This document shows, in pieces, positions 37,935 through 63,050 of a stretch of 64,000 bases of DNA. The position numbers and the translations under genes were made by a program. Position 1 is the stretch's first letter, and the number at the start of each line of letters is the position of its first letter. The stretch comes from Geopsychrobacter sp. (lineage in GTDB: Bacteria > Desulfobacterota > Desulfuromonadia > Desulfuromonadales > Geopsychrobacteraceae), in assembly GCA_012974425.1 (NCBI GenBank), contig JAAXQE010000095.1, forward strand, positions 519 to 64,518. The letters are read 5' to 3'. The notes below the pieces were generated by a model. It saw only the letters and a list, made by a program, of their open reading frames with translations. It was not told the origin of the DNA and did not search any database.

Positions 37935-40259
37935 TTAGCCTCCTGCAACGAAGGAAATCAGACTGATTTCACTGCCGTCAGGAATTTCAATTCGGTCTTC
38001 TCCGGCAAGAATCATCTTGTCGTTGATGACAATAAGCAGGTTCGGATCGTCCAGGGTTTTAATCGACTCTGGCAGCTTGCTGCGCAGCAACTGGCGAAGC
38101 TCTCCCAGGTGTTCGACCTGCTCATCAATGATAATGCTCTGTTCCGGGCTGCCTGGGAGTGTGCAGGGCAGTTTGACCCTGATGCTGTAACCGGTGACGA
38201 TCTTCGCGAGCCGGGCGTGCCAGTCGAGTTCGGGCGCTCCTTCACGATTGAGTCCGCTAATCTTGTAAAAACGTTGCTTGAGAGCCTCAAACTGTTCCCT
38301 GTTGATTTTTTCCCCCTTGAAGGGCCCGACCGTGATTGGCTCATCGAACCAGCGGTCTGGCAGACTGTCATCTTCTGCCCGCAGCCCCAGGCGGTAGTTG
38401 ATCATCCGCTCCAGTCCGGTGATGTTGCGACCAATTTCGTCCAGTTTTTCGGCATCGAACGGCAACCGGGTCAGCTCATTGAGATGGTCGGAAAAGTCTG
38501 TCAGATCAGGGGTTGATGGCGAGTTGAACAGTTTGGTGTTGAAACGGCACATGCCGACCGAATCCCCGGCGGCAAAAGTATTTTCGCAGCGCCTGACCGC
38601 GTACTCCTTCCCCTCGTACGAGGTTGGTTCAGGGGAGACGACACCGCCGTAGAGGGCGGTTTTGAAGGCGGCATCATCGTTGATGCGGGCGTTAATCTCC
38701 AGGGTGGCCCGATTGCGCAGATGATCCATACCGCGGGTGGCAACCGCCAGCCCAAGGGCAAACGCCTTGAGAATCCGGGCGTCGTGAGGATCGGACTGGA
38801 ACAGCCCCTTGGAGGCCATACAGTATTTTAGTGCTTCTGCTGGATACTTTCCCTGTTCGACTGCACGGCTGGAGGTGGCGATAGTGTCGCCGAAACCTTG
38901 CCGTTTTGCCGTCAGGAACAGTAACTGCTCAATGACCGGATAGTTCCCCCAGCTCAAATCCAGTCCACCGGTGATCTGCTGATCGATGATACCGCGCTGA
39001 AAAAGTTCCATCGCCCAGGCGATGGCGCTGCCGGTGCTGGAGGCATCGAGCGCCAGATCGTTGATAATGTTGTTCAGTCGCAGAACCTGTTCCGGTTCCT
39101 TAATGCCGATATTCGGACCGAATTTGCCGACGGTGATGTACTCCGGGCCTTCGCCCTTGTCGTACTTGTCGAATTTTCCGTCGTTGTTGATACCGTTGTA
39201 GGTGCGTTGTTTGTGATGCTCCAGACTGCTCTGCTCTTTATCGTAACTGGCGTTACCGCTCAGACCGGTCAGAGCGCTGGCCCCCCAGCCGCCTTTACCG
39301 CCGGGAAGCATGTCGTTGTTAGCCCGGCAACCGACCGGGCACTGGAAACAGCGGCTCATGTTCGGTCGGTAGGGATCGAAGTTGTCGGCGTCGAGACTAT
39401 CGTGCCAGGTGGTCTCCTGGTTGTTCTTGGTGCCCATGGCGCAGAGAACCCGGCTCGGTTTGTAGAGAAAGGGCGTACCGACCTTTTTCAGCGCATTCTG
39501 CACTACGCTGGCAGACAGGATCTTTTTGCCAAGTTCCCGGTTTTTCTGTTTGTGTGCTGCAGAAAGTGCAAGCCCCGGCGGTTTGCCCTGAATCATGATT
39601 GCTTTCAGGTTCAACGAACCCATTTTGGCGCCACCACCACCTCTGGCCCAGATTGCTTTTTCTCCTGCCATGATACCGCTGCAGAGGACCTGGTTTTCAC
39701 CGGCACTGCTGATCCTCGCCATAGCCATATCTGTTCTTTCGTGGCAGTTAAAATCTCTCTCAATTGACTTGGTGAACTCGATGTTGTCCATGCCGTAATA
39801 GGGGCTGGCATCGATAAATCTGACTTGCTCCTGATCGATTTTTAGCATGGTCCATTGCGGATTACGACCATAGAGGACCAGATGGTCGTAGCCGTGACGT
39901 TTGAGATAGGTGGGGAAGAAGTCACCAGCGTTGCTGTCGAGGATCGCCCGGCTTTCCGGTGAACGGCTGGTGACGTTGCCGCGGGTAGCTGCCGGCATGC
40001 TGCCGGTTAGCACGCCGGCGCCGAAGATTAATGGGACTTCGGGGTCAAGGGCATCCATTTCTTCCTGCAGCAGGTTGTAGAGCAGGTACATGTTTCCGCC
40101 GCGCCCGGCCAGAAAATGCTGGACCGCGTCAAGCGGCAGGAAGCCTCGCTGGCTGCTGCGCCGTTCAAGGTCGACAAACAGCACCGCACCCTGGCTTGGG
40201 TATTGTGGTTCGGCATGCATCCGGTTGAGAAGTCGTGTAACCCGCTGTCTGATATCCAA
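37935..40259 (-). CDS. Tungsten aldehyde oxidoreductase (AOR)-family protein fused to C-terminal MoaD/ThiS-like domain
   Basis: GRGG, TSRSP, RGGGGAKMGSLNLKAI, CFQCPVGC, GPEY and RGMDH motifs; C-terminal beta-grasp domain ending ISFVAGG*. Confidence 0.88.
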   Translation of the reverse strand: MDIRQRVTRLLNRMHAEPQYPSQGAVLFVDLERRSSQRGFLPLDAVQHFLAGRGGNMYLLYNLLQEEMDALDPEVPLIFGAGVLTGSMPAATRGNVTSRSPESRAILDSNAGDFFPTYLKRHGYDHLVLYGRNPQWTMLKIDQEQVRFIDASPYYGMDNIEFTKSIERDFNCHERTDMAMARISSAGENQVLCSGIMAGEKAIWARGGGGAKMGSLNLKAIMIQGKPPGLALSAAHKQKNRELGKKILSASVVQNALKKVGTPFLYKPSRVLCAMGTKNNQETTWHDSLDADNFDPYRPNMSRCFQCPVGCRANNDMLPGGKGGWGASALTGLSGNASYDKEQSSLEHHKQRTYNGINNDGKFDKYDKGEGPEYITVGKFGPNIGIKEPEQVLRLNNIINDLALDASSTGSAIAWAMELFQRGIIDQQITGGLDLSWGNYPVIEQLLFLTAKRQGFGDTIATSSRAVEQGKYPAEALKYCMASKGLFQSDPHDARILKAFALGLAVATRGMDHLRNRATLEINARINDDAAFKTALYGGVVSPEPTSYEGKEYAVRRCENTFAAGDSVGMCRFNTKLFNSPSTPDLTDFSDHLNELTRLPFDAEKLDEIGRNITGLERMINYRLGLRAEDDSLPDRWFDEPITVGPFKGEKINREQFEALKQRFYKISGLNREGAPELDWHARLAKIVTGYSIRVKLPCTLPGSPEQSIIIDEQVEHLGELRQLLRSKLPESIKTLDDPNLLIVINDKMILAGEDRIEIPDGSEISLISFVAGG

Positions 40260-40308
40260 TTTATCCTCGCAATTCTATAGGTGGGCGAGACATGCCTCGG
40301 CCCAACGA

Positions 40309-40995
40309 TCAATTTTGTCCAGGGGCGCCACATGAGGCGGCAGGCTTCATTTCCGCATCGGCACCAAAATCACCACCCGCATTGTTACCGAGCAGTTTTG
40401 GGCTGTACTTCTTGTAGGTGACGGTAATTTCCGCAAAGGGGACATCGGCAAAGAACCCGCGCACATGGACATATTCCATATGTCTTCGCTGGTCAGAATC
40501 GCAGGCATGGAAAATCGAATCATCCCGACCGTTGAATTCGAGCGGTTTGACCCGGAATCTGCTGCAGAGGTCCAGATTGAAGGCGGGGGTCGCCTTGACC
40601 CATGTCCCTTGCAGCCAGAGTTCGCAGAAGGCGTGCCAGCGAAACAGGTCACCGCCGTTCAGTTTTCTTAATCGGGGAGTGTTGAGATGGTTTTTCACAT
40701 CGGCAAATCCGAGTCGCGAGGGGATACCGCTCACCCGGCAGCAGGCTGCCAACAGCGCAGCTTTGGATATGCAGAAACCATAACCGCTGCGCAGAACGTT
40801 GCTGGCCCGATAGGTTTCCGGATCACCATAATCAAGGTAGGGCGTGTAACTTATGTCGTCGCGGATGCGATAATAAAGGGCTACTGCCTTGTCGATATCC
40901 GACTGTGAGGAACCGACGACGTCTTTCGCGTACTCCTGAATGACGCTGGCGTTACTGTCGACATATTCTGCACTCTGAAGAAACAGATGATCCAT
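40309..40995 (-). CDS. Transglutaminase-like cysteine protein
   Basis: GFCISKAALLAA, IPSRLGFADVKNH, WHAFCEL and WVKATPAFN motifs. Confidence 0.8.
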   Translation of the reverse strand: MDHLFLQSAEYVDSNASVIQEYAKDVVGSSQSDIDKAVALYYRIRDDISYTPYLDYGDPETYRASNVLRSGYGFCISKAALLAACCRVSGIPSRLGFADVKNHLNTPRLRKLNGGDLFRWHAFCELWLQGTWVKATPAFNLDLCSRFRVKPLEFNGRDDSIFHACDSDQRRHMEYVHVRGFFADVPFAEITVTYKKYSPKLLGNNAGGDFGADAEMKPAASCGAPGQN

Positions 40996-41517: not shown

Positions 41518-42804
41518 TCAACCGTAAACCAGGTGAGGCAAGAAGAGAACCAGGTCCGCCCAGTAGGTCAGAATTAGCAGAATGCCGATCTGAATCAGCA
41601 GAAATGGCATGACTGCCTTTGATACGTAAAGCAGGCTACGGTCAACTGCCGCCCCCGAGATATACAGGCTGACACCCAACGGTGGGGTGCAGTAGCCAAT
41701 CCCCAGATTTATGGTCATCAGCAGGCCGAAATGCATGGTGTCAATGCCGAAAGGGGCGAGCAACGGCAGAAAAATCGGCGTCAGGATCAGGGTCGCGGAA
41801 ATGATGTCCATGAACATCCCGACTACCAGCAGCATGACATTAACCGCCAGTAGAAATACCCAGGGAGAGGTGATCTGGCTAACGACCGCTGTGGCTATTT
41901 TGTCCGGTATCTGTTCAAAGGTGAGATATTCGCCGAAAACCGACGCCCCGGCAACGATTATCAGCAGGGTCGCAGAGGTAACCGATGAAGAAACAATGAC
42001 TTTTTTAATGTCTTGAAGCTTCATATCCTTGTGAATGAAGACTTCGACAAAAAATGCATAAAAGCAGGCCACAACTGCGGCCTCGTTGGCAGTAAACATG
42101 CCGGAATAGATGCCGCCAAAAATCAGTACCGGCAGACAGAGAGCCCAGATGCTCTCTCTGCAAACTGAGATAATTTCCTTAAGGTTAGGCCGTGCGAGGG
42201 TTTTGTAGCCTTTTCGTTTGCAGTAGAAATAAGCGTACAGGCTCATCGCCACCATGATCATAGTTCCTGGAATAAACCCGGTTAAAAACAGTGCCTCTAT
42301 CGGGTCGTTGCTGACCATCGCGTAAAGGATCATGGCGATCGATGGTGGAATAATGATGCCCAGATTCGGTGCGGTGGTCATGATGCCGACGGAAAATTTT
42401 TCGTCATAGCCGTTTTCGATCAGCGCCGGGATCATGAACCCGCCGATGGCGACCACGGTGGCAACCGTCGAACCGGAGATTGCGCCGAAGAAACCACAGG
42501 CCAGGACGCCGGCCATTGCCAGTCCGCCAGGGAGAAAGCCAACCATGGCATTGGCCGTCTTGATCAGTTTGTGCACGATCGAACCGGTGGTCATGATGTT
42601 GCCGCAAAGAATAAAGAACAGCACTACAACCAGGGCAAACTTGTCCATACTGCGGTAGAGCACTTCAATGACAATTTGCGCGTCGATGCCGATCATGAAC
42701 ACCAGGCCGACCGTGCCGGTAAAGAAGAGTGCCATGAAGACCGGTACGGTCGAGGCAAGCAGACCGAGTAGCATAAACAGGATAATCAGATAGCTGGAGT
42801 CCAT
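41518..42804 (-). CDS. dctM: TRAP transporter large permease
   Basis: FGAISGSTVATV, LGIIIPPSI and TPPLGVSL motifs; highly hydrophobic, 428 aa. Confidence 0.93.
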   Translation of the reverse strand: MDSSYLIILFMLLGLLASTVPVFMALFFTGTVGLVFMIGIDAQIVIEVLYRSMDKFALVVVLFFILCGNIMTTGSIVHKLIKTANAMVGFLPGGLAMAGVLACGFFGAISGSTVATVVAIGGFMIPALIENGYDEKFSVGIMTTAPNLGIIIPPSIAMILYAMVSNDPIEALFLTGFIPGTMIMVAMSLYAYFYCKRKGYKTLARPNLKEIISVCRESIWALCLPVLIFGGIYSGMFTANEAAVVACFYAFFVEVFIHKDMKLQDIKKVIVSSSVTSATLLIIVAGASVFGEYLTFEQIPDKIATAVVSQITSPWVFLLAVNVMLLVVGMFMDIISATLILTPIFLPLLAPFGIDTMHFGLLMTINLGIGYCTPPLGVSLYISGAAVDRSLLYVSKAVMPFLLIQIGILLILTYWADLVLFLPHLVYG

Positions 42805-42849: not shown

Positions 42850-43347
42850 TCAGGTGATGGCCCCCTCCTTCCAGTCGGCAATCATGACAAGCAGGGTGCG
42901 AAAAAACATCATCACCCCAATCGTTGGCAATAAGGCATAAAATATCCATTCCGGGATCTGCAGGCTGGCGGTCCGGGCGTATTCATCTTCATACATCATG
43001 ACCGTCATCGACCAGCCGAGGTAAATCAGGGCTCCGGCGAAAATCAGAGTGACAGCATGGGCAAACAGGGTCAGGGGTCTTTTTAGCCCTGGAACCAGTT
43101 GGGGCAGGGCATCTATCCGGATCAATGTCCCGCCACGGATCGCGACGACGCTGCCGACGTAAGTCGAGAAGTAAATCGTTTTGCGCACGACTTCATCCGA
43201 CCAGTACAGGTTGACGTCGTCAGTAAGTTTGCGTAAGAGAACATTCGCCATGGCGACGGTCAGTGCCGTGCATACTGAAAGTATCAGTGCCCAATCTTCA
43301 AAGAAGGTGAAGAATCGGTCAATTTTATGGACTGTTTTTTTCAGCAT
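42850..43347 (-). CDS. dctQ: TRAP transporter small permease
   Basis: About four transmembrane segments, WSDEVVR and IRID motifs; lies between dctP and dctM. Confidence 0.88.
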   Translation of the reverse strand: MLKKTVHKIDRFFTFFEDWALILSVCTALTVAMANVLLRKLTDDVNLYWSDEVVRKTIYFSTYVGSVVAIRGGTLIRIDALPQLVPGLKRPLTLFAHAVTLIFAGALIYLGWSMTVMMYEDEYARTASLQIPEWIFYALLPTIGVMMFFRTLLVMIADWKEGAIT

Positions 43348-43423: not shown

Positions 43424-44479
43424 TTAAATGGCGCCGAGTGTAGAGCGAACTTTGGTCAGATAGTCATCATCAACCTTTTTTCCCCACTTGACGTAAACCG
43501 GTGCGGCCATTTGGACCAGCTTGGCTTTGTCTTCTGCCGACAGTTGGATAAATTCGACGCCGGCTTCTTTGGCTTTGGCAACCTGCTGGGTATGTTGCTT
43601 TCTGGTCAACTCACGTGTCTTGGCACTCTCTTCGGCGATGACTTCCAGGAAAATCGTTTGCAGATCTTTCGGTAATTTCTTGAACCAGCGCTTGTTGACC
43701 AGGTGAATGTACAGTCCCTGAGCGTAATTGACCTCAGTGAAGTATTTGGCGATGGAGAACTTCTTGGTAATGTTACAGACGATCGCCGTATGGTCGAGAC
43801 CGTTGATGACACCAGTCTGCAGTGCCTGGGAGACGTCCGGCCAAGGTAGAACAGTAAACTTGGCACCCCAGGATTTATACAGATCGGTGTTGACCGGAGC
43901 TTGGGCGATGCGGAAGTTGACCGTCTTGGCGTCAGCCAGGTTGCGTACCGGAGTGGTGGTGGCCCAGCCGTACAGGCCGTAGCCGGTGATGTCGGGGACC
44001 ATCAGTCCAGCAGCCTGGGCAGCGTTACTAAACGGCTCCCAAAGCTCCGGATCGTTGCGGAACCGATCTAGCTTGTCAAAGCTGTCGACAACATAAGGCA
44101 GGTTAACGATGCCGAGTTTGTCGGCAATGTTGGCCGATGCCACCGATGATGCCAGCATCCCTTGTACTGCACCGATTTTCAGCTTGGAGATGACGGCCTT
44201 TTCACCACCGAGCTGTGCCAATGGGCGATAATCGACATAGATGCGGCCGTTAGACTTGGCCCACAGCGAGTCGCGAATGTTGTAGCCAACCGCTCCGCCT
44301 TCAATGATCGGATGTGAGATGTTCGACAGAATGTAGGTATATTCCGCCTTTGAATGATCAAACTTGGTTTTCCAGTTGGCCAGTGGATCTTTTTTCTTGC
44401 CTGCCGCGAGCAGTGGGCTGGCCAGCAAACTGACAATCAGCAGAGCCAACAGCGGAAACAGGACGAATGTTTTTCTCAT
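43424..44479 (-). CDS. dctP: TRAP transporter periplasmic substrate-binding protein
   Basis: Signal peptide, LGIVNLPYV, NFRI (conserved carboxylate-binding Arg) and ALQTGVINGLD. Confidence 0.9.
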   Translation of the reverse strand: MRKTFVLFPLLALLIVSLLASPLLAAGKKKDPLANWKTKFDHSKAEYTYILSNISHPIIEGGAVGYNIRDSLWAKSNGRIYVDYRPLAQLGGEKAVISKLKIGAVQGMLASSVASANIADKLGIVNLPYVVDSFDKLDRFRNDPELWEPFSNAAQAAGLMVPDITGYGLYGWATTTPVRNLADAKTVNFRIAQAPVNTDLYKSWGAKFTVLPWPDVSQALQTGVINGLDHTAIVCNITKKFSIAKYFTEVNYAQGLYIHLVNKRWFKKLPKDLQTIFLEVIAEESAKTRELTRKQHTQQVAKAKEAGVEFIQLSAEDKAKLVQMAAPVYVKWGKKVDDDYLTKVRSTLGAI

Positions 44480-44612: not shown

Positions 44613-45554
44613 CTAGGTTTCAAGCGCCTTGACCAAGCTGCGTAAGGTCGTGTTGAAGGGCGTCTTTACCCCCGCTCGTTCGCCATATTCAATGATTTTT
44701 CCATTGATGTAGTCGATTTCCGTTTGTCGCTTCGCTTCGATATCCTGCAGCATCGAGGGCTTGTGGTGGCCAGCTTCCTTGATGTAGTCGATACATTCGA
44801 TGTAATAATCCGGCCCGAGCAACAGTTCATTGGCTCTGGCGACTCTGACCCCTTCTTTTAACAACGAGTTGACCAGGCCCATAACAATCGGATCGTTGAT
44901 AACTTCAAACATGGTCTTGCCGGTGACCGCGCAGACCGGATTCATGCAGGAGTTGTTGATCGTTTTCGTCCAGACCATGTTGCGGATCTGGTTGGTGTGG
45001 TGCGTGTCAAGGCCGCATTCGGTCAGAGCGTTACAGATTGCCTGAGCAGCGTCCTTTGAACCCGGATCAAGTTCTTGCAGATAGTGCGGGCGGTGATGGA
45101 AGGCCAGTTTGACCTTCGCCGGGCCCTCCAGGATGCAACCGTAGTTAACCACCGCGCGCATGACCTGTTTTTTACCGAGTCGTTCAGCCAGAACCTGCTC
45201 GGTGTCGATGCCGTTTTGCCAGCTGACAACGTAGCGTCCCGCGGTAATAAAAGTTTCCAGGGCAGAAGTGATGATCGGCAGCGCCGTCGCCTTCACTGTA
45301 ACGATCACGACATCTGGTGGATCGGCGGCCAGTTCATCAATCCGGGTCGTCGTCCTGGTCACCTTTGCCTGAAATTCATCAGCACCAGACAGGCTGATTC
45401 CCGGATTTAGCGCCGGCTCAAGCAGGCTGGTCTGAACATCGCAGAGCGTGACATCGTAACCTCCCCTGGCGAGGAACGCGGCAACGATGCAACCGACCGG
45501 ACCAGCGCCAACGACGGCAAATTTCTTTGGTTTGAAACTGTTGTTTTCCTGCAT
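44613..45554 (-). CDS. Ketopantoate reductase-family (PanE/ApbA) 2-oxoacid reductase, copy 2
   Basis: GAGPVG, SWQNGI, WTK...N and SMLQD...TEIDYING motifs; 313 aa. Confidence 0.85.
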   Translation of the reverse strand: MQENNSFKPKKFAVVGAGPVGCIVAAFLARGGYDVTLCDVQTSLLEPALNPGISLSGADEFQAKVTRTTTRIDELAADPPDVVIVTVKATALPIITSALETFITAGRYVVSWQNGIDTEQVLAERLGKKQVMRAVVNYGCILEGPAKVKLAFHHRPHYLQELDPGSKDAAQAICNALTECGLDTHHTNQIRNMVWTKTINNSCMNPVCAVTGKTMFEVINDPIVMGLVNSLLKEGVRVARANELLLGPDYYIECIDYIKEAGHHKPSMLQDIEAKRQTEIDYINGKIIEYGERAGVKTPFNTTLRSLVKALET

Positions 45555-46067: not shown

Positions 46068-46129
46068 GGGAAGCTCCCTTGTCAATAATCGGACCGATAA
46101 TCGGGCGCGGCATGCCTCGCCCGCGAAGA

Positions 46130-47071: not shown

Positions 47072-47164
47072 CGTGCTAATCTCCTTGTCCGGAACCGGTG
47101 GATGGATTGTCCAACAGGTTCCTGGAAACTCAGAACTCAATGAAAAGATCAGTTACAGTCGATA

Positions 47165-47605: not shown

Positions 47606-47626
47606 GACCATCTCCCTTGCCCGAGC

Positions 47627-50033: not shown

Positions 50034-50199
50034 TCTTATCCTTCTTTCGTCTATGTGGTTGATCGACTGAACGCATCCTGCGTCGGCGTGGGTCGGTTGG
50101 GCCGCATTCCGCTAGCCTGGTTTGCGGCCCGAATCCGTCTCTTAACCGGTTGTACCGGAGCCTGGCCGATTTCGATTTCGATTTCTTGTTCTGCCGCCG

Positions 50200-55200: not shown

Positions 55201-56010
55201 CTATGCCAGCTTTTGGCCTGGCATATCTTCGGTTGCCGCATCCAGGGCATAGAGCGCTGCGCCATGCGCTCCGGTGAGCTGAGGGAACTCGGTCAGCAGA
55301 ACCGGCCGACCGATCAGCTCCTCGGCCATCTCCACCAGATAGGGGTTGTGGGCGACCACGCCGCCGCACAAAACAACTTTATCGGTCAGCGAATCCATCT
55401 CCAGAACCCGTTGGATCATTGAGTAGAAGATCCCCTTGATGATGGCAGTGACCGGTTTGCCGTGACGGATGTTCTCCAGCACCTCGGTGGCGGAGAAAAC
55501 CGTACAATAGCTGCCGAGCTTGATCATCTCTGTCGCCTGGTGGGCCAGGTTGTTCATCTCGTCGAGCGGGATGTCGAGCCGGCTCGACATCTCCTCAAGA
55601 AAGGCTCCGGTTCCGGCGGCGCATTTTCGATTCATTTTAAAACTGTCGCGGCGCCCCTCGGTATCCAGCTTGATGATTTTGTTGTCCTGCCCACCGATAT
55701 CAATGATGGTGATCGCTTCTGTAAAACTGTAGTAACAGCCTTTGGCGTGGCAGCCGATTTCAGTTTTGCTCTTTTCGGTAACAAAAGCGACGTTGTTGCG
55801 GCCATAGCCGGTAGCGACGGCGTCGGAAATGTCACTCCGGTTGGCACCAGCCAGTTCCAGCGAGGCATCCAGGCAAAGCGCAGCCGTCGCGGCAAAATCG
55901 GTACCCGACTTTTTGACTGCGTGTCCGAGCAGCACCCCGTGGCGGTCGATAACCGCCACCTTGGTGCGTGATGCTCCCATGTCGAGTCCGACATAGACTG
56001 GCTGTGCCAT
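55201..56010 (-). CDS. ATP-dependent dehydratase activator (HgdC/FldI archerase family)
   Basis: GLDMGASRTK, ATGYGR, IIDIGGQDNK, MNRKCAAGTG, CTVFS and GGVA motifs. Confidence 0.92.
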   Translation of the reverse strand: MAQPVYVGLDMGASRTKVAVIDRHGVLLGHAVKKSGTDFAATAALCLDASLELAGANRSDISDAVATGYGRNNVAFVTEKSKTEIGCHAKGCYYSFTEAITIIDIGGQDNKIIKLDTEGRRDSFKMNRKCAAGTGAFLEEMSSRLDIPLDEMNNLAHQATEMIKLGSYCTVFSATEVLENIRHGKPVTAIIKGIFYSMIQRVLEMDSLTDKVVLCGGVVAHNPYLVEMAEELIGRPVLLTEFPQLTGAHGAALYALDAATEDMPGQKLA

Positions 56011-56052: not shown

Positions 56053-56925
56053 TTAGTACCGGGCTGCTTCCGATTCAATCGTTCTGACCAGATTAACCAG
56101 CCTGGGGCCAATGTCGTCTTCAAGCATATGTTGTCGCAGCACAAATGCTGGTGCTGCACAGTTAAAGGTCAGCAGTCGTGAGCCTGAAATCGGCAGCATC
56201 GGCACGCCGATCGCGTTAACGTCGCTACGCCAGTCGCCGATTGACAGGCAGAAGCCGCGCTCCTCGTAGTCGCGTAACGCCTGTTCGATGCCACTTTTAT
56301 TCTCTGTCCAGTTGTTCGGGTCGCGCTGGCGGATGTTGTCCATCAGCTGCTCTCGCTCATCCTCTGGCAGGCCGCAAAGCAGGGCTCTGCCCATGGCGGT
56401 GCTAGCGATAGGAACCCGGGTACCCGGTTCGCGGCGCAAGGAGACGGTGGCGTCAGTGCTGTGTCGTCCGTCAAGGTAGATCATGCCGAGTCGGTCACGG
56501 GTGCCGACTGAAACTACGGTATGTGAATAGTCTGCCAGATCCTGCATCAGGGGGCGGGCAATCTTCAGTACATCCATGTTGGTGAGTAGCGAAAAGCCGA
56601 GGGAGAGCACTGCGGTGCCGAGTTGGTACTTGCCAAGTTTTACGTCGTGATGCAGATAGTTCATGCGTGTCAGGGTGTAGGTCAATCGAGAAACGGTCGG
56701 TTTCGGCAGCCCGGTGCGCTCGGCAATGTCCTGGTTTCCCAGATGCCGATCTCTCGGTTTGAAGCAGCGCAAAACTTCCAGTCCACGAGCCAGGGCGGTT
56801 ACAAATTGTCGGTCCTTGCTGTTCTCTTCTAGCGAGGAGATGCCGTCCAGCCCAATCAGCTCTGCCCGGTCGTTTTTATTTGTCGGTGCTGTGTTGTCGT
56901 TCATAGCCATATTCTCCGCAGCCAC
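56053..56925 (-). CDS. IclR-family (PcaR/PobR-like) regulator
   Basis: FVTALARGLEVL, IAERTGLPKPTVSRLTYTL and STAMGRA; paralogous to the gene at 29833. Confidence 0.9.
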   Translation of the reverse strand: MAAENMAMNDNTAPTNKNDRAELIGLDGISSLEENSKDRQFVTALARGLEVLRCFKPRDRHLGNQDIAERTGLPKPTVSRLTYTLTRMNYLHHDVKLGKYQLGTAVLSLGFSLLTNMDVLKIARPLMQDLADYSHTVVSVGTRDRLGMIYLDGRHSTDATVSLRREPGTRVPIASTAMGRALLCGLPEDEREQLMDNIRQRDPNNWTENKSGIEQALRDYEERGFCLSIGDWRSDVNAIGVPMLPISGSRLLTFNCAAPAFVLRQHMLEDDIGPRLVNLVRTIESEAARY

Positions 56926-57060: not shown

Positions 57061-57075
57061 TTTCGCATTGTGAAA
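57061..57075. promoter_or_regulatory. Palindromic operator, copy 1
   Basis: TTTCGCA-T-TGTGAAA (14/15 identical to copy 2) in the divergent intergenic region. Confidence 0.7.
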
Positions 57076-57258: not shown

Positions 57259-57273
57259 TTTCGCATTGCGAAA
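57259..57273. promoter_or_regulatory. Palindromic operator, copy 2
   Basis: Perfect palindrome TTTCGCA-T-TGCGAAA, 112 nt upstream of ATG 57385. Confidence 0.75.
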
Positions 57274-57384: not shown

Positions 57385-59400
57385 ATGAAATCGATTGCAA
57401 CAGTAGGCGTCGTTGGCGCCGGAACCATGGGCTCAGCAATTGCTCAACACTTTGTCATGAAGGGGCTGCCGGTCATTCTGGTTGACCAGCAACAGGAGTT
57501 TCTTGAGCGGGGGGTCGGTTATATCCGTGAATCCCTGGGGGAAGCTTTGCAGCGAGGCCTGATCGATCAGCCAGCATTTGATCAAGTGCTTGGTCGACTG
57601 CACTGCTCAACTGATCAGGCTGAGCTGGCTAAGGCGGATCTGGTGGTCGAGGCTATTTTCGAAAACCTTGAAGTCAAGAAGGGGCTGTTCGCCGAACTGG
57701 AAAAGGTGGTCAGTGCCGATTGCATCCTCGCCAGTAATACCTCATCTTTTTTGATCAGTGAAATTGCCGCCGACTTGCAAACGCCGGAGCGGGTTGTTGG
57801 AGTTCACTACTTCTATCACGCCGCCAAAAACAAACTGGTTGAGTTGATCCCTGGCGAAAAGTCTTCACCGGAGATCGTCGCTGCCCTCGAAAATTTTTAC
57901 GCCTTTTATGACAAGACCCCGATTCTGGTCAAGGATGCTCCGGGGTTTGCAGTCAATCGTTTCTTTGTGCCCTGGTTGAATGAAGCAGCTCGTCTGTACG
58001 AAGAGGGTTGTGGCAGTATCGCCTTTATCGATCAGGTCGCCTGTGACGTTTTCGGTGTTGGTATGGGGCCTTTCGCGTTGATGAATGCGACCGGTGTGCC
58101 GATCGCTATGCATGCCGCCGATGGTTTGGCTGGTGAGCTTGGTGCTTTTTATGCGCCAGCGAAACGCCTTTGCCAGCAGGTTGAAGCCAAACAGGACTGG
58201 AACGTTGAGGATACCAGTCACCTCAATAGCGGTTCCGACAAGGTTGATGTTGTCACTCGCCGCCTGGTTGGTGCCAGTCTTGGGGTTGCTGCGCAAATGG
58301 TCGATGAAGGGGTGGTTGATGCGACCTCGACCGATCTGGGCGCTCGTGCCGGTCTGCGTTGGCCGATTGGTCCCTTCGAGTTGCTCGAAAAGCTTGGCGC
58401 ATCGCAGGTCGGGGAAATGGTGGAGAGCGTTTTTTCTGCCTGGGAGCTTCCCGTGCCGGACTGTCTGGCCGATTCTGGCCGAGCGCAAAATTTGCGTCTT
58501 AACTGGGTGAGAACCGAGGTTATCGCCGAGACTGGATTTATCATTCTCGATCTGCCGGACCGGATGAACCCGCTTGGTGAGCAGGTGATGAGTCAGTTTG
58601 ATCGCTGTGTGGATGAACTTAACGGTAGAGCCGACATCAGCAAGATCATCATTCATGGCAAGGGCAAGGCATTTATCGCCGGTGCCGACATCAAGTTCTT
58701 CCTCGATTCCATAGATGCTGATGATTTGCAGCGAATTCAGACCTTTACCGAGTTCGGGCAGCAGGTCCTGAACAAGATCAGTGGCTCCGACAAAGTGACA
58801 ATTGCCTACCTTGACGGATTGGCCCTTGGCGGTGGACTGGAACTGGCACTGGCTTGCGATTATCGTCTCGGCACCCGCAAATCGGTACTGGCTTTTCCGG
58901 AAACCGGAATTGGTATCTACCCTGGTCTCGGCGGTACCCAGCGTGCCAGTCGATTGATCGGTGTCGCCCGCGCCAAGCAACTAATCGCCAGCGGTCAGTT
59001 TATCAACGCCAAAAAAGCTTATGAATACGGCTTGATCGACGCCATTATCGAGCCGGTTTTAGACTGGCGGGAATTAGCTGGGGTGTCCCTTGAAAAGGCC
59101 CAGTCCGGTCGTAAGGAGGGAACTCCGGAGGAACTCGAATTCGCCGCCTTCGATGGTGAGCTTGGGCATCCGCTGCTGGCCCGTGAAGGCTCGGAAAAAC
59201 TCGCCAAGACTTTAAGCCGCAAGGCGCCGCTAGCATTGAAAACAGCCATGAATCTGATTGATCAGGGGTACGGTCTGGAGCTTCAGGCCGGCCTGCAACT
59301 GGAACTTAAAGGGTTGAAAACCATCTTTGCCACCAAGGACGCCCGGAGCGGTCTCTCAAGTATTCTCAGCGGCCAGAAACCGAACTATATCGGTAAATAA
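57385..59400 (+). CDS. Bifunctional 3-hydroxyacyl-CoA dehydrogenase (N-terminal) / enoyl-CoA hydratase (C-terminal)
   Basis: GAGTMGSA, SNTSS, VHYFYHA and PGFAVNR in the N-half; AFIAGADI, GGGLELALACD and FPETGIG in the C-half. Confidence 0.88.
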   Translation: MKSIATVGVVGAGTMGSAIAQHFVMKGLPVILVDQQQEFLERGVGYIRESLGEALQRGLIDQPAFDQVLGRLHCSTDQAELAKADLVVEAIFENLEVKKGLFAELEKVVSADCILASNTSSFLISEIAADLQTPERVVGVHYFYHAAKNKLVELIPGEKSSPEIVAALENFYAFYDKTPILVKDAPGFAVNRFFVPWLNEAARLYEEGCGSIAFIDQVACDVFGVGMGPFALMNATGVPIAMHAADGLAGELGAFYAPAKRLCQQVEAKQDWNVEDTSHLNSGSDKVDVVTRRLVGASLGVAAQMVDEGVVDATSTDLGARAGLRWPIGPFELLEKLGASQVGEMVESVFSAWELPVPDCLADSGRAQNLRLNWVRTEVIAETGFIILDLPDRMNPLGEQVMSQFDRCVDELNGRADISKIIIHGKGKAFIAGADIKFFLDSIDADDLQRIQTFTEFGQQVLNKISGSDKVTIAYLDGLALGGGLELALACDYRLGTRKSVLAFPETGIGIYPGLGGTQRASRLIGVARAKQLIASGQFINAKKAYEYGLIDAIIEPVLDWRELAGVSLEKAQSGRKEGTPEELEFAAFDGELGHPLLAREGSEKLAKTLSRKAPLALKTAMNLIDQGYGLELQAGLQLELKGLKTIFATKDARSGLSSILSGQKPNYIGK

Positions 59401-59409
59401 GGAGTCATC

Positions 59410-60675
59410 ATGAAAGCAAGCGTACAGGGATTTCAGAACAAGCAGGCTGGCAGCGGTGCTCTTTTTGAGGACATCTATCTGCTCGACGGGAAGCGTACCC
59501 CCTTTGGTAAGTACACCGGCGGCCTGTCGACGGTTTCGCCGACCGACCTGGGTATTTTCGCCAGTCGCGCCGCGATCGCTGCGGCCGGAGTGCCGGCTGC
59601 CGACATCGATCAGACCATCGTTGCCAATATCGGTCAGGCCAGCGCCGACAGCTTTTTCTTGCCGCGTCACGTTGCCCTGTATGCAGGAGCGCCGATCGCC
59701 AGCACTGCTGTTTTGACCCAGCGAATCTGTGGCTCCGGCGTCGAATTGCTGGGGCAGGCGGCAGAGCAGATCGCCCTCGGCAAGGCCAACCTGATTCTTG
59801 GCTGTGGGACCGACACCATGAGCCGCTTCCCTCTTGCATCCTATTCCGCTCGTCAGGGTTTTCAGTTGGGTCGGCCCGAGTTTGTTGATCTGCTCTGGGA
59901 AGCTCTCAACGATACCGCCGCAGTGCCTATGGGGGCTACGGCTGACAATCTGGCCAGAGAGTATGCCCTGACGCGGGAAGAGGTCGATGCCTTCGCCCTG
60001 CGCAGTCAACAGCGCTATGCCAATGCTGCAGAAGCCGGGTTCTTCCAGCAGGAGATCACTCCGGTGGAGGCCAAAGGGGTCCTGGAGATGGAAGGTTTCA
60101 ACCCGCGTAAATACCGCTGTAACGGTCGTAACGGGATCAGCGCAGATGAACACCCGCGGCAGGCCACCATGGAAGAGTTGGGCAAACTGCCCTTTGTTTT
60201 CAGTAAAGAGGGGCCTACCACTGCCGGCAGTGCTTCGGGCATCGTCGATGGTGCAGCGGCACTGATGGTTGCTTCGGGCGACTATGTTCGGGCCCATGGT
60301 CTGAAGCCGCTCGGCAAGATTCGTGGCTTCGCTTCGACCGGTGTGCAACCGGAGATTATGGGGATCGGTCCGGTTCCGGCGATCCGTTTATTATTGACGC
60401 AGATGGGGCTGAAAATCGGCGATATCGACCGGTTTGAAATCAATGAGGCCTTCTCCGCCCAGTGCCTGGCCGTGGCCAGAGCTCTTGAGCTGGATCAGGA
60501 TAAACTGAATGTGAATGGTGGTGCTATCGCCATCGGTCATCCGCTCGGGGCGACCGGTGTGCGTCTGGCTTTGACCTGCCTGAAGACCTTGCAACGTGAC
60601 GGCAAACAGTTGGGGATCGCTTCCGCCTGTATTGGTGGCGGACAAGGGATTGCCATGGTCGTGGAGGCCTGCTGA
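59410..60675 (+). CDS. Thiolase
   Basis: QRICGSG, NEAFSA, GHPLGATG and ACIGGG motifs. Confidence 0.9.
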   Translation: MKASVQGFQNKQAGSGALFEDIYLLDGKRTPFGKYTGGLSTVSPTDLGIFASRAAIAAAGVPAADIDQTIVANIGQASADSFFLPRHVALYAGAPIASTAVLTQRICGSGVELLGQAAEQIALGKANLILGCGTDTMSRFPLASYSARQGFQLGRPEFVDLLWEALNDTAAVPMGATADNLAREYALTREEVDAFALRSQQRYANAAEAGFFQQEITPVEAKGVLEMEGFNPRKYRCNGRNGISADEHPRQATMEELGKLPFVFSKEGPTTAGSASGIVDGAAALMVASGDYVRAHGLKPLGKIRGFASTGVQPEIMGIGPVPAIRLLLTQMGLKIGDIDRFEINEAFSAQCLAVARALELDQDKLNVNGGAIAIGHPLGATGVRLALTCLKTLQRDGKQLGIASACIGGGQGIAMVVEAC

Positions 60676-61442
60676 TGGCCGCCGCGGATCAGCCAGTTCG
60701 GGGCCGGGTGGTTGTCATCACCGGCGCCGGACAGGGGATAGGTGCCGCAATCAGTCGGCGTTTTGCTGATCAAGGAGCACGTCTGGCCTTGGTCGATGTC
60801 AACGCAGAGCAACTACACCAACTGGCCGGAAGTCTTGAGGGTTCCGGTTGTGAGATTTTGCCGATCATCGCTGATATTGCTGACAAGGAGCAGGTTCAGC
60901 AGCTGGTCGCACAGGTGACAGAGAAGTTTGGCGGCATAGACGTGCTGGTTAATAATGCCGGTGTCATTCGTGACAACCTGATCAGCAACATCTCGGAGCA
61001 GGATTGGGATCAGGTACTGAATATCAATCTGAAGGGGGCCTTTCTCTGTTGTCAGGCGGTTTTTCCAACACTGAAAAGCCAGCGTTCGGGAAAGATTGTC
61101 AATATCGTTTCGCGAGCCTGGCTCGGCAGTATCGGTCAGGCGAACTATACCGCCAGCAAGGGGGGACTGGTCAGTTTAACCCGTTCGCTGGCGCTCGAAT
61201 TTGCCCGTTTTCAGATTAATGTCAATGCCGTGGCGCCAGGGGCAATTGAATCACCGATGACCCAAAGTATGCCGACCGAGGCACGTGAGCGACTGATTCG
61301 TATGCAACCAACCGGCAAGATGGGCAAGGTTGAGGATATCGCTGCTGCGGTTGCTTTTCTCGCTTCGGATGATGCTGAGTTTATCACCGGTCAGGTGTTG
61401 CATGTCGACGGCGGCAAGAGCTGCGGTCTACTGTCACTTTAG
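60675..61442 (+). CDS. Short-chain dehydrogenase (FabG-like 3-oxoacyl reductase)
   Basis: TGAGQGIG, NNAG and YTASK motifs; TGATG translational coupling to the upstream thiolase. Confidence 0.88.
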   Translation: MAAADQPVRGRVVVITGAGQGIGAAISRRFADQGARLALVDVNAEQLHQLAGSLEGSGCEILPIIADIADKEQVQQLVAQVTEKFGGIDVLVNNAGVIRDNLISNISEQDWDQVLNINLKGAFLCCQAVFPTLKSQRSGKIVNIVSRAWLGSIGQANYTASKGGLVSLTRSLALEFARFQINVNAVAPGAIESPMTQSMPTEARERLIRMQPTGKMGKVEDIAAAVAFLASDDAEFITGQVLHVDGGKSCGLLSL

Positions 61443-61451
61443 GGGAAATTA

Positions 61452-62597
61452 ATGGACGCTTATCTGGTCGAAGCAAAACGGACTGCCATCGGCAAGGCCC
61501 ATCCCGAAAAAGGACTGTTCCGTGATGTCCGGGCCGACGATATGCTTGCTGCCCTGATGCGGGGATTGCTTGACGGCATGCCTGCTGGCGTAGCACTGAG
61601 TGAAGCCATTGATGATATTTACATCGGTTGTGTCGGTCAGCATCTGGAGCAGGGGAAAAATATCGCCCGGCTCGCTGCGTTGTTGGCCGGCCTCCCCGAC
61701 AGGGTGCCGGGTGTTACCATCAATCGTCTTTGTGCCTCCAGTTTGCAAGCGTTTAATTTTGCCGCCTCTACCATTGGCGCTGGGCATGCCGACCTGCTGC
61801 TGGCCGGTGGCGTTGAGCATATGGGCCATGTGCCGATGGCAGCAGCCATCGATTATAATCCCGGGCTGTTTGAACACTTCGAGTTCCCTTTTACCAATAT
61901 GGGGCTGACCGCAGAAAAGGTTGCGGACGTCTATGGTATCAGTCGTTCCACACAGGATGATTTTGCCGTGGAGAGTCATCGCAAGGCCGTCGCCGCCCAA
62001 CAGGCGGGTCATTTTGCCAGGGAGATTGTCCCGATCCCTGCCGGTGACGCCATTGCCGATCAGGATCAGTCACCACGGCCGGGAACCAATCGCGAAAGTC
62101 TCGCCGGGCTGAAGAGCATCTTCAAGGAAAACGGCACGGTCACAGCGGGCAACAGTTCGCCGCTCAATGATGGCGCCAGTCTGACCCTGCTTGCATCGGC
62201 GGCCGCCTGTGAGCGCTTTGAGTTGCCACGTCGGGCACGCGTGGTCGATTTTGCTGTGGTCGGTCTCGACCCTTGTCAGATGGGGATGGGGCCGGTTCCG
62301 GCGATCCGTCAACTGCTGCAGAAAAATCAACTCTCGGTGGCGGACATTGATCTGTTTGAATTGAATGAAGCCTTTGCCAGTCAAGCTGTGGCCTGTATCA
62401 ACGAGCTGCAGTTGCCCTTGCAAAAGGTCAACCCTTGGGGTGGAGCTTCCTCTCTCGGCCACCCCTTGGGTTGCACTGGAACCCGCCTGATCACCACCTT
62501 GCTCAATGGTCTGGAGACCAGTGGCGGGCGCTACGGAATCGCATCGCTGTGCATCGGTCATGGTCAGGGGATGGCAACCCTGATTGAACGGCTTTGA
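61452..62597 (+). CDS. Thiolase (FadA-like)
   Basis: NRLCASS, NEAFA, GHPLGCTG and LCIGHG motifs. Confidence 0.9.
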   Translation: MDAYLVEAKRTAIGKAHPEKGLFRDVRADDMLAALMRGLLDGMPAGVALSEAIDDIYIGCVGQHLEQGKNIARLAALLAGLPDRVPGVTINRLCASSLQAFNFAASTIGAGHADLLLAGGVEHMGHVPMAAAIDYNPGLFEHFEFPFTNMGLTAEKVADVYGISRSTQDDFAVESHRKAVAAQQAGHFAREIVPIPAGDAIADQDQSPRPGTNRESLAGLKSIFKENGTVTAGNSSPLNDGASLTLLASAAACERFELPRRARVVDFAVVGLDPCQMGMGPVPAIRQLLQKNQLSVADIDLFELNEAFASQAVACINELQLPLQKVNPWGGASSLGHPLGCTGTRLITTLLNGLETSGGRYGIASLCIGHGQGMATLIERL

Positions 62598-62621
62598 ACC
62601 AGACAACTTGCGGATGATTTT

Positions 62622-63050
62622 ATGAAACCAAAATCTGAAGTCGAAATAGATGTCCGTTACGCCGAAACTGATCAGATGGGCGTTGTTCACCACGCCAACT
62701 ATCTGGTCTGGTTCGAATTGGCTCGTACCCGGTTTTGTCTCGACGCGGGGAAGCCTTATCCCGAAATTGAAGAACTCGGATATTTTATGCTCATCACTCA
62801 GGCCCAGCAGAATTACCGTCTGGCGGCCTGTTATGGTGACAGTGTCAAAGTCACCGCCTGGCTCGACTGGGTTGCCAGTCGCAGCCTGCAATTCAGTTAT
62901 CAGGTGGAACGTGGAGACCAGCTTCTGACCACCGGCCATACCAGGCATATCTGGGTCAAACGCGAATCACGGCAACCCTGCAGTATGCCCATCAGTTTGC
63001 GCGAGACCTTTCTCAAGCTTGCCGAACAGACAACATTTAAAAGGTCCTGA
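62622..63050 (+). CDS. Acyl-CoA thioesterase (YbgC/4-hydroxybenzoyl-CoA thioesterase family)
   Basis: VRYAETDQMGVVHHANYLVWFELAR motif. Confidence 0.88.
   Translation: MKPKSEVEIDVRYAETDQMGVVHHANYLVWFELARTRFCLDAGKPYPEIEELGYFMLITQAQQNYRLAACYGDSVKVTAWLDWVASRSLQFSYQVERGDQLLTTGHTRHIWVKRESRQPCSMPISLRETFLKLAEQTTFKRS

Follow-up and report, generated by a model that had tools for sequence, protein, structure and literature searches.

A predicted dehydratase and ADP-forming ligase core in Geopsychrobacter and its probable role in feeding aryl 2-oxo and 2-hydroxy acids into the benzoyl-CoA pathway

The DNA described here is a 64,000-nt stretch of a Geopsychrobacter sp. genome (contig JAAXQE010000095.1; hereafter the window, meaning this whole stretch), which carries two divergent runs of genes. 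The minus-strand run includes a gene for a single 2-hydroxyacyl-CoA dehydratase subunit, called HGD-D after its Pfam family, together with genes for an activase, an ADP-forming acyl-CoA synthetase (ACD), two reductases of the ketopantoate-reductase (PanE) family and the oxidoreductase IorAB. We consider it probable, at roughly 60%, that the genes of the minus run form a module for breaking down aryl 2-oxo and 2-hydroxy acids, which would feed benzoyl-CoA via cinnamoyl-CoA. The candidate substrates are phenylpyruvate, phenyllactate, their 4-hydroxy or indolyl analogues and, possibly, arylacetates. Gene presence, family membership and synteny are what was observed, and from these we infer every catalytic assignment. 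Genes were called from a listing of open reading frames (ORFs) and from Pfam and NCBIfam scans of the window, and those central to the minus run are the following.

44613-45554, minus strand: PanE-a, ketopantoate-reductase family, proposed arylpyruvate reductase (ApbA and ApbA_C)
45612-46085, minus strand: ACT-domain-pair protein a (Pfam ACT_8, 75 bits)
46130-47140, minus strand: PanE-b, likely true start near 47071 (ApbA and ApbA_C)
47165-47611, minus strand: ACT-domain-pair protein b (Pfam ACT_8, 66 bits)
47702 to 48277-48382, minus strand: IorB (NF005322, 226 bits, just under the cut-off of 237)
48261-50033, minus strand: IorA (TIGR03336 at 656.3 bits, above the cut-off of 650.9)
50200-51609, minus strand: CoA-transferase of the 4-hydroxybutyrate CoA-transferase (AbfT/Cat2) family (Pfam AcetylCoA_hydro and AcetylCoA_hyd_C; PDB 3gk7)
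51714-53801, minus strand: ACD, fused ADP-forming acyl-CoA synthetase, 695 residues (Pfam CoA_binding, Succ_CoA_lig and ATP-grasp_5)
53795-55045, minus strand: HGD-D, single alpha-type 2-hydroxyacyl-CoA dehydratase subunit, 416 residues (Pfam HGD-D, 234.5 bits)
55201-56010, minus strand: HgdC-type ATP-dependent activase (Pfam BcrAD_BadFG; TIGR00241, 193.4 bits against a cut-off of 125.4)

Every gene named in the first-pass annotation of this DNA was recovered by the ORF listing and the domain scans; the two ACT-pair proteins, a transglutaminase-like gene, the family of the CoA-transferase and the one-subunit state of the dehydratase had been absent from it.

Among solved structures searched with phmmer, the closest relative of HGD-D was the alpha subunit HadB of 2-hydroxyisocaproyl-CoA dehydratase (3o3m_A; E 1.5e-48, 169 bits), followed by MbdO, a subunit of the class I 3-methylbenzoyl-CoA reductase (E 1e-36, 130 bits), and the HadC beta chain was not matched in this search. 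Against the NCBIfam HadB equivalog, the protein scored 220 bits with a cut-off of 750, which makes it a member of the family and no HadB equivalog, and its scores with the benzoyl-CoA reductase (BCR) equivalogs lay far under the cut-offs (151 vs 487, and 118 vs 578). Residues C92, C132 and C360 have Cys counterparts in the aligned HadB, MbdO and BzdO sequences and are invariant in 10 orthologues; they are predicted ligands of the active-site [4Fe-4S] cluster. In addition, Cys43 (codon at about 54917-54919, minus strand) is invariant, with Cys in MbdO and Ser in HadB, and further invariant Cys at 204, 303 and 394 have no HadB counterpart. These extra invariant Cys may reflect a different cluster arrangement in a single-subunit enzyme. 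Proteins of this type are often labelled 'BcrC/BadD/HgdB', and the inference of aromatic degradation from metagenomes could thus misread them as benzoyl-CoA reductase.

The minus run contains only one PF06050 gene, and no second PF06050 gene lies within 10 kb on either side in Geopsychrobacter, Geobacter hydrogenophilus or Desulfonema magnum. Since no such gene is linked, HGD-D would be homodimeric or would work with an unlinked partner. The overall set resembles the clostridial systems FldABC with FldI (phenyllactate dehydratase of C. sporogenes) and HadBC with HadI (2-hydroxyisocaproyl-CoA dehydratase of C. difficile), with which it shares a PF06050 subunit, an ATP-dependent activase of the HgdC type, a 2-oxo-acid reductase for the preceding step, activation of the hydroxy acid as its CoA ester and the predicted elimination of the alpha-hydroxyl to a 2-enoyl-CoA. 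However, the window has a single alpha-type subunit with no linked beta subunit, its reductases are of the PanE/ApbA type while the clostridial one is of the D-2-hydroxyacid-dehydrogenase type, and an ADP-forming ligase and an AbfT-type transferase stand in place of the family III (FldA/HadA) transferase. Moreover, the predicted fate of the enoyl-CoA is oxidation to benzoyl-CoA by an organism that respires, whereas the clostridial product is reduced and excreted.

The pair of HGD-D and activase might instead form a minimal ATP-dependent aryl-CoA or dienoyl-CoA reductase akin to class I benzoyl-CoA reductase, with no dehydratase involved. The 130-bit similarity to MbdO, the Cys that MbdO shares at position 43 and the frequent adjacency of had, oah and dch all agree with such a function, but HGD-D is closer to the HadB alpha subunit (169 vs 130 bits), and class I enzymes require a pair of unlike catalytic subunits (BcrB/C) as well as a pair of unlike ATPase subunits (BcrA/D), where the window run encodes one subunit of each kind. 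PanE, which also occurs fused to HGD-D, as well as the ACT proteins and ACD, would have no role in ring reduction, and the host already has BamB to BamI. We regard a reductase of this kind as very unlikely.

A genome scan found relatives of HGD-D in at least 591 species of bacteria and archaea. The best 80 of these at least 591 relatives are 62-89% identical to the window protein and span Desulfuromonadota, Desulfobacterota, Burkholderiales, an alphaproteobacterium, Bacteroidota, Ignavibacteria, Aminicenantes, Anaerolineae, Thermoplasmatota and Asgard archaea. The clade corresponds to about one representative (59% identical) in a library clustered at 50% identity, where the next full-length relatives reach at most 46%. 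Cultured carriers are Geopsychrobacter electrodiphilus, Geothermobacter hydrogeniphilus, Geobacter hydrogenophilus, Citrifermentans bremense, Desulfonema magnum and Desulfococcus multivorans. Geobacter metallireducens was considered as a host of the cluster and rejected, its genome having no HGD-D catalytic subunit (Butler et al. 2007).

For the neighbourhoods, window proteins were mapped by tblastn on all loci and neighbouring ORFs were clustered without prior labels; counts out of 40 refer to the loci in which HGD-D is flanked on either side by 6 kb or more. In nearly all 80 loci, HGD-D has the activase and ACD as its immediate neighbours, and the recurrent genes in the 40 were the activase (38), ACD (34), PanE (28), an ACT protein (20), a divergent thiolase of about 396 residues (17), IorAB (16), an AMP-ligase of about 520 residues (16), had (12), an AbfT-type transferase (12), a PaaK-type ligase (11), the fusion of 3-hydroxyacyl-CoA dehydrogenase with enoyl-CoA hydratase (HAD/ECH; 8), oah (7), TRAP genes (6), the aldehyde:ferredoxin oxidoreductase AOR (5) and a xanthine-dehydrogenase-family enzyme (3). 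Thus, of the set sought beside had, namely PanE, activase, HGD-D and IorAB, PanE recurs in 28/40, IorAB in 16/40 and had itself in 12/40. Desulfonema magnum carries a stand-alone unit of ACT, PanE, activase, HGD-D and ACD, which we take, from gene order, as the putative minimal module.

The whole divergent layout is kept at 66-92% protein identity in Geopsychrobacter electrodiphilus, Geothermobacter hydrogeniphilus and five metagenome-assembled genomes (MAGs): had, thioesterase, thiolase, the short-chain dehydrogenase (SDR), thiolase and HAD/ECH on one side, and the regulator IclR, activase, HGD-D, ACD, transferase, IorAB, ACT, PanE, ACT and PanE on the other. Because this layout is conserved in relatives, the two runs do not stand side by side by chance.

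The HGD-D stop codon overlaps the ACD start codon, the overlap reading CAATGTTAG, so that ACD is translationally coupled to HGD-D. The best NCBIfam matches of ACD are the 3-hydroxypropionate and 4-hydroxybutyrate ligase models, with the ADP-forming 4-hydroxybutyrate-CoA ligase ranking first, below its cut-off; ADP-forming ligases of the ACD family are known for both of these acids. Fermenters activate the hydroxy acid by transferring CoA to it from the end product of their own pathway. An enoyl-CoA that is oxidised further stays a CoA ester, and for this reason a ligase, or transfer from acetyl-CoA, would be needed. ACD is accordingly a candidate hydroxyacid-CoA ligase and looks like the partner of the dehydratase rather than of IorAB: it is beside HGD-D in 34/40 loci against 16/40 for IorAB, and Desulfonema magnum has ACD with no IorAB within 10 kb. 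The parallel ATP-yielding branch of IOR and ACD that had been suggested for this DNA finds little room in these data.

The CoA-transferase matches PDB 3gk7 at E 2e-130. The first-pass annotation was right that a CoA-transferase is present, but the family is that of 4-hydroxybutyrate CoA-transferase (AbfT/Cat2), neither the FldA nor the Gct type. Such a transferase would offer a cheaper, acetyl-CoA-dependent alternative for the activation of aryllactate.

PanE-a belongs to the TIGR00745 subfamily only and reaches no equivalog; its nearest PDB entries, all with similar scores, are 2ew2 (an uncharacterised Enterococcus ketopantoate reductase), the Thermococcus ketopantoate reductase and the D-mandelate dehydrogenase 3wfi. 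PanE-a and PanE-b are 68% identical, the alignment beginning at residue 24 of PanE-b, and in 20/40 loci an ACT protein directly precedes PanE. Three database representatives are fusions of an N-terminal PanE/ApbA with a C-terminal HGD-D domain, 36-53% identical to the window HGD-D (P0242 of 728, P0260 of 768 and P0245 of 603 residues; a gene-calling artefact is possible). As Rosetta-stone evidence, these fusion proteins place the reductase and the dehydratase in one pathway.

A closely similar gene set has been listed before. Doerries et al. (2016, BMC Genomics 17:918; PMC5109826) described a 'Phenylacetate, Phenylpyruvate' module in Desulfococcus multivorans DSM 2059 (Dmul_24730-24900, gene list in Table S1), so that the earlier view of this combination as undescribed does not hold. 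On the forward strand, this module has hbd5, a 680-residue HAD/ECH fusion and a 396-residue thiolase; two-component regulators lie between the strands; and the reverse strand carries dctM4Q4P4, two AMP-ligases, an 'R-phenyllactate dehydratase activator' (269 residues), the alpha subunit (416 residues) of a 'predicted R-phenyllactate dehydratase', a PanE-type 'putative phenylpyruvate reductase' (319 residues), an ACT domain protein (144 residues), iorB3 and iorA3. The same study reported, from proteomics, that formation of the TRAP proteins, a ligase, Hbd5, the fusion and the thiolase was specific to phenylacetate and phenylpyruvate and that of IorA3B3 to phenylpyruvate; it also reported growth of the organism on phenyllactate. 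It places the cluster between bam genes and ring-opening genes, and assigns a paralogous 680-residue fusion and thiolase in a neighbouring cluster to beta-oxidation of cinnamoyl-CoA. Both D. multivorans and D. toluolica are without the PadB and PadEFGHI of denitrifiers. In that paper, beta-oxidation-type enzymes were proposed to make phenylglyoxylate, and the step to benzoyl-CoA was called 'unclear'.

By analogy, the window module appears to be the Desulfuromonadales version of this cluster. Both have the run of iorA, iorB, ACT, PanE-type reductase, activator and 416-residue alpha subunit, a DctPQM TRAP importer, a divergent HAD/ECH fusion with thiolase, one dehydratase subunit only, and a place in an aromatic hotspot next to bam and ring-opening genes. 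They differ in that D. multivorans has two AMP-forming ligases after the dehydratase (including FadD4, Dmul_24830) where the window has ACD and the AbfT-type CoA-transferase; the AMP-binding ligase of about 520 residues found in 16/40 other loci is absent from the window. D. multivorans also has a two-component regulator in place of IclR, one ACT-PanE pair in place of two, and no AOR listed, and its authors route phenylacetyl-CoA via phenylglyoxylate with no proposal of cinnamoyl-CoA. A protein search seeded with a Desulfobacteraceae orthologue returned Desulfonema magnum, and not D. multivorans, among its best 120 matches.

More recently, a 2026 benzene study of the same school (PMC13416013) drew a hypothetical route from phenylpyruvate via 2-hydroxy-3-phenylpropanoyl-CoA and cinnamoyl-CoA to benzoyl-CoA with a 'yet unassigned dehydratase'. 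Its BzS1 cluster 26180-26210 was considered as the same set and rejected, as it consists of different genes, for transferases of family III, for a 'dehydratase domain' protein and for an acyl-CoA synthetase. Literature searches on the activase, HGD-D, ACD and PanE combination in Geobacter and archaea found no functional or biochemical study. A system with a predicted single subunit, a PanE-type reductase, an ADP-forming ligase and an oxidative context is already annotated in one cultured sulfate reducer, and what is new here is the spread of the activase/HGD-D/ACD core, the adjacency of PanE and ACT, the PanE-HGD-D fusions and the recurrence of had, oah, IorAB and PaaK.

Which acids the core acts on is suggested by its recurrent neighbours, and IorAB, PaaK, ACT, had, oah and an enzyme like 4-hydroxybenzoyl-CoA reductase (Hcr) point to aromatic acids. 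The had and oah genes beside the core pass their equivalog cut-offs in Geobacter (locus L024), Desulfobacterales (L058), Ignavibacterium (L083) and Anaerolineae (L075). In L083, FAD-binding, 2Fe-2S and molybdopterin domains of the xanthine-dehydrogenase family, like those of 4-hydroxybenzoyl-CoA reductase, lie between PanE and had, which fits a tyrosine-derived substrate (4-hydroxyphenyllactate to 4-hydroxybenzoyl-CoA).

Aliphatic 2-oxo acids were weighed as substrates, either 2-oxoglutarate or 2-oxoadipate yielding glutaconyl-CoA for the pump Gcd, as the first-pass annotation had offered as its alternative, or 2-oxoisocaproate from leucine yielding isocaprenoyl-CoA for beta-oxidation. The nearest solved structure is indeed the alpha subunit of 2-hydroxyisocaproyl-CoA dehydratase, and PanE-family enzymes reduce branched-chain 2-oxo acids in Lactococcus. 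In the window, glutaryl-CoA dehydrogenase (GDH) and GcdABC are found 25-30 kb upstream; in L021 and L027 they lie directly upstream of the core, and Geobacter loci have thiolase-like, crotonase and HBD genes after ACD. However, GDH/Gcd occur within 10 kb of the core in 0/40 well-flanked loci and 4/82 overall and belong to the lower benzoyl-CoA pathway anyway, so that the glutaconyl-CoA version is weak. The hydroxyglutarate pathway (HgdH, GctAB, HgdAB/C, GcdABC) has no counterpart in linkage either, Gcd being 25 kb off beside glutaryl-CoA dehydrogenase and no GctAB-type transferase being present in the window. The recurrent neighbours listed above also speak against aliphatic acids, as does D. 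multivorans, whose cluster is tied to phenyl compounds (PMC5109826). Substrates of this class are thus quite unlikely.

Because had, oah, IorAB and PaaK recur beside the core and Gcd does not, conversion of aryllactyl-CoA to cinnamoyl-CoA and on to benzoyl-CoA is the best-supported of the proposed functions. The sequence put forward in the first-pass annotation, from arylpyruvate through (R)-aryllactate, aryllactyl-CoA and cinnamoyl-CoA to benzoyl-CoA, is accordingly the best fit to the comparative data (PanE in 28/40 loci, the fusions and D. multivorans). The enzymes for its later steps would come from the plus run, which reads as follows.

57385-59400, plus strand: HAD/ECH fusion, 671 residues (Pfam 3HCDH_N, 3HCDH and ECH_1)
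59410-60675, plus strand: thiolase 1 (domain scans)
60675-61442, plus strand: SDR (domain scans)
61452-62597, plus strand: thiolase 2 (domain scans)
62622-63050, plus strand: 4HBT-type acyl-CoA thioesterase (domain scans)
63092-64000, plus strand: had, cut short by the end of the window (TIGR03201 at 501 bits; cut-off 339)

In relatives, oah comes next after had (in L001, TIGR03200 at 645 bits). A HAD/ECH fusion with a thiolase is also the equipment for beta-oxidation of cinnamate and 3-phenylpropanoate in Aromatoleum aromaticum EbN1, Rhodopseudomonas palustris and D. multivorans (Dmul_24630-24680), and the predicted intermediates, cinnamoyl-CoA and 3-hydroxy- and 3-oxo-3-phenylpropionyl-CoA, and products, benzoyl-CoA and acetyl-CoA, are alike. 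In those routes, cinnamoyl-CoA arises by ligation of cinnamate or dehydrogenation of phenylpropionyl-CoA, whereas radical dehydration of aryllactyl-CoA is proposed for the window. From its families, the plus run could oxidise either cinnamoyl-CoA or 3-hydroxypimeloyl-CoA, an intermediate of the lower benzoyl-CoA pathway.

The spacer between the two runs holds features that may tie them together.

56053-56925, minus strand: IclR2, IclR/PcaR-family regulator (HTH_IclR and IclR_C; TIGR02431, 135 bits, below the cut-off)
57061-57075, no strand: palindromic operator candidate 1, TTTCGCATTGTGAAA, on the side of the promoter of IclR2 and the minus run
57259-57273, no strand: palindromic operator candidate 2, TTTCGCATTGCGAAA, on the side of the plus-run promoter

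These twin palindromes, of the form TTTCGCATTGYGAAA, are the sole two sites in the 64 kb, with a chance expectation of 0.21 (up to 2 mismatches allowed), and each lies about 120-140 nt upstream of one divergent start codon. They are kept, about 200 bp apart, in the orthologous spacers of six related loci, and in Geobacter-type loci without the plus run one or two boxes still precede IclR2. The palindromes pointed out in the first reading of this DNA thus prove to be confined to the divergent spacer and conserved in relatives. Orthologues of IclR2, 61-88% identical, precede the activase in 12 loci. A second IclR paralogue (29773-30630, 53% identical to IclR2) precedes a thiolase-HBD-crotonase set; since the TTTCGCATTGCGAAA box does not occur near its gene in the window, it presumably recognises a different operator. 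A promoter and terminator scan of the minus run gave counts not above those in shuffles, for which reason the operon boundaries of this run cannot be set.

Two further explanations give IorAB another part. One is a Stickland-like fermentation, in which IorAB and ACD would form an oxidative ATP branch (arylpyruvate to arylacetyl-CoA to arylacetate and ATP), while PanE, HGD-D and an enoyl-CoA reductase would make arylpropionate as in Clostridium sporogenes, the benzoyl-CoA genes being nearby by chance. All parts of the clostridial reductive branch are present except the enoyl-CoA reductase, EtfAB and acyl-CoA dehydrogenases lie upstream in the window, and IOR, ACD and AOR together resemble the peptide-fermentation set of Thermococcales. 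As in that IOR, ACS-II (ACD) and AOR system, the window has IorAB (passing the IOR_alpha equivalog), an ACD-family protein and an AOR-family tungsten enzyme; unlike it, ACD is tied to the dehydratase by coupling and by co-occurrence (34/40 loci, against 16/40 for IorAB), relatives pair IorAB with PaaK, and AOR is found in 5/40 loci. Moreover, the adjacency of had and oah recurs in four phyla, candidate shared IclR operators link the minus run to the had operon in at least six orthologous spacers, and the host has a complete class II benzoyl-CoA reductase cluster. Fermentation of this kind is unlikely.

The other explanation takes IorAB in reverse and extends the cinnamoyl-CoA route without contradicting it: the main job would be phenylacetate degradation in strict anaerobes without PadBCD and PadEFGHI. 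Phenylacetate would be activated (in relatives by PaaK, in the window by ACD or the CoA-transferase) and reductively carboxylated by IorAB with reduced ferredoxin to phenylpyruvate, from which PanE would make phenyllactate, followed by activation, dehydration to cinnamoyl-CoA and cleavage to benzoyl-CoA and acetyl-CoA. In Desulfobacterales, the genes IorA, IorB, PaaK, PanE, activase, HGD-D, ACD, ligase and thiolase follow one another on one strand, which would suit such a use. A PaaK-type phenylacetate-CoA ligase (AMP-binding and AMP-binding_C_2, 447 residues) is encoded at 14943-16286 of L001, between the CoA-transferase and IorA; it has the same place in Geopsychrobacter and the closest cultured relatives and is present in 11/40 well-flanked loci and 21/82 overall. 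Furthermore, cluster proteins of D. multivorans were formed on phenylacetate in the absence of padB and padEFGHI (PMC5109826), and a related clostridial arylpyruvate:ferredoxin oxidoreductase pathway is reported as thermodynamically reversible at each step (PMC13285125). Against this, the window has no PaaK gene, its position being a mere 166-nt gap (50034-50199), so that the organism has lost PaaK or never had it; carboxylation needs low-potential ferredoxin, two activations are costly, and IorAB is absent within 10 kb in 24/40 loci. Arylacetate entry by this path is possible but, on balance, doubtful.

The cinnamoyl-CoA route as proposed for the window would run as follows. The TRAP system would import the acid, and the PanE-type reductases, each with its ACT partner, would reduce arylpyruvate to (R)-aryllactate, which the ADP-forming ligase, or the AbfT-type CoA-transferase with acetyl-CoA, would convert to the CoA ester. 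The single-subunit, presumably homodimeric HGD-D, primed by the activase, would dehydrate aryllactyl-CoA to cinnamoyl-CoA, and the HAD/ECH fusion and one thiolase would hydrate, oxidise and cleave this to benzoyl-CoA and acetyl-CoA. BamB to BamI would then reduce benzoyl-CoA, Had and Oah would open the ring, and the SDR and second thiolase plausibly serve the 3-hydroxypimeloyl-CoA step. IorAB would interconvert arylpyruvate and arylacetyl-CoA in either direction, AOR may handle arylacetaldehyde or aryl acids, and IclR2 would control both operons through one palindrome per divergent promoter.

Several points weigh against this proposal. The substrate is read from neighbour genes only, and 8/40 well-flanked loci, mainly Burkholderiales MAGs, have no aromatic marker within 10 kb, which makes a broader substrate range possible; the 80 loci studied, being the closest of at least 591, are biased toward relatives of the window. 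To our knowledge, all characterised 2-hydroxyacyl-CoA dehydratases are alpha-beta heterodimers, and here no beta subunit is linked, though an unlinked one is possible. The best structural relative acts on 2-hydroxyisocaproyl-CoA, not on phenyllactyl-CoA, and the plus run could serve the lower benzoyl-CoA pathway alone. Orthology to Dmul_24850 was judged by identical length, order and annotation, not by sequence comparison; Doerries et al. read three of the genes as 'phenyllactate to phenylpyruvate', and their paper does not report detection of the dehydratase, the activator or the reductase as proteins (PMC5109826).

For obligate anaerobes such as sulfate reducers, metal reducers and syntrophs, radical dehydration to cinnamoyl-CoA would close the gap between phenylalanine-derived acids and benzoyl-CoA. 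If the proposal is true, a clostridial enzyme of the reductive Stickland branch would be reused as an oxidative funnel, and a much-studied family of radical enzymes would gain a form with a single subunit and a coupled ligase. More tentatively, the ACT-PanE-activase-HGD-D-ACD set might constitute an alpha2 homodimeric dehydratase with its own ADP-forming hydroxyacid-CoA ligase, which, with a carboxylating IorAB (and PaaK in relatives), would be the missing route from phenylacetate, phenylpyruvate and phenyllactate to benzoyl-CoA in strict anaerobes lacking PadBCD and PadEFGHI. In that event, phenylacetyl-CoA and CO2 would give phenylpyruvate, phenyllactyl-CoA, cinnamoyl-CoA and finally benzoyl-CoA and acetyl-CoA, the side chain gaining one carbon and then losing two.

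The remaining genes of the minus run lie beyond PanE-a.

37935-40259, minus strand: AOR, tungsten-type aldehyde:ferredoxin oxidoreductase, 774 residues (Pfam AFOR_N and AFOR_C)
40309-40995, minus strand: transglutaminase-like protein (Pfam Transglut_core, 65.8 bits)
41518-42804, minus strand: DctM of the TRAP importer (Pfam DctM)
42850-43347, minus strand: DctQ of the TRAP importer (Pfam DctQ)
43424-44479, minus strand: DctP of the TRAP importer (Pfam DctP)

TRAP genes are upstream of ACT-PanE-activase-HGD-D in 8 loci, and the best solved-structure match of DctP is an isethionate-binding protein (97 bits), too distant for a ligand clue. The transglutaminase-like gene was not recovered as a conserved neighbour in the other loci compared. 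The nearest structures to AOR are the P. furiosus AOR 1aor and the A. aromaticum AOR 8c0z, with BamB far weaker, and copies 62-67% identical lie in the same cluster of L019 and L022. The last 70 or so residues of AOR (37935-38150) give a weak ThiS/MoaD-like match of 21.9 bits, just under the cut-off of 22.5, and the L019 copy, 67% identical, is also long (797 residues).

Upstream on the plus strand, the window carries a class II benzoyl-CoA reductase cluster from BamB (partial) to BamI and FdhD; a 599-residue acyl-CoA dehydrogenase with an AMP-ligase; a 385-residue acyl-CoA dehydrogenase with GcdB, GcdA and a biotin carrier protein; the second IclR with thiolase, HBD and crotonase; and a membrane FeS oxidoreductase with EtfBA. 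These bam, Gcd, acyl-CoA dehydrogenase and Etf genes make the window an aromatic 'catabolic island' in the genome of a strict anaerobe. The organism is uncultured; its DNA occurs in marine sediment metagenomes (DNA runs) and was found in no RNA run, and the closest proteins, 89% identical, come from Desulfuromonadales and Geobacteraceae MAGs. At 13340-19940, genes for an alpha/beta hydrolase, a MoxR-type AAA ATPase and a VWA/CoxE-like protein come after those for the 599-residue dehydrogenase and the 614-residue AMP-ligase. In size and type, this dehydrogenase and ligase pair is like AcdA4 and FadD3, which belong to the 3-phenylpropanoate cluster of D. multivorans, and, by this likeness, could be a second entry to cinnamoyl-CoA.

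The BamF-like MvhD/FlpD protein at 6615-7379 reads MSEFEFKPNVIGFLCTW*AYGAAD..., with an in-frame TGA at 6666-6668. The FlpD match downstream of the TGA starts at model position 10/123, and the N-terminal part of the domain therefore lies upstream of it; the TGA is most likely a selenocysteine codon. Selenocysteine is known in Geobacter BamF. At its C-terminus, the window protein also gives a weak match to an ArsR-type HTH.

Two groups of loci outside the Desulfuromonadota show further arrangements. On the chromosome of Ignavibacterium sp. bin94 (L083, 6746-21242), two BcrA/D-like ATPases (474 and 287 residues), activase, HGD-D, ACD and PanE are followed by the FAD subunit, a fused 2Fe-2S/molybdopterin subunit, had, oah and a dch-like gene, a gene content that suggests a complete route for aromatic acids in a phylum that is not known to have one. 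In two Promethearchaeota MAGs (L078 and L080) and a Thermoplasmatota MAG (L072), HGD-D is 64% identical to the window protein and is combined with an AMP-ligase, a thiolase-like gene, AOR with a 4Fe-4S subunit, and PanE. The had-, dch- and BadI-like genes of L078 and L080 score below the equivalog cut-offs, and the substrate of the archaeal loci may be different from the bacterial one.

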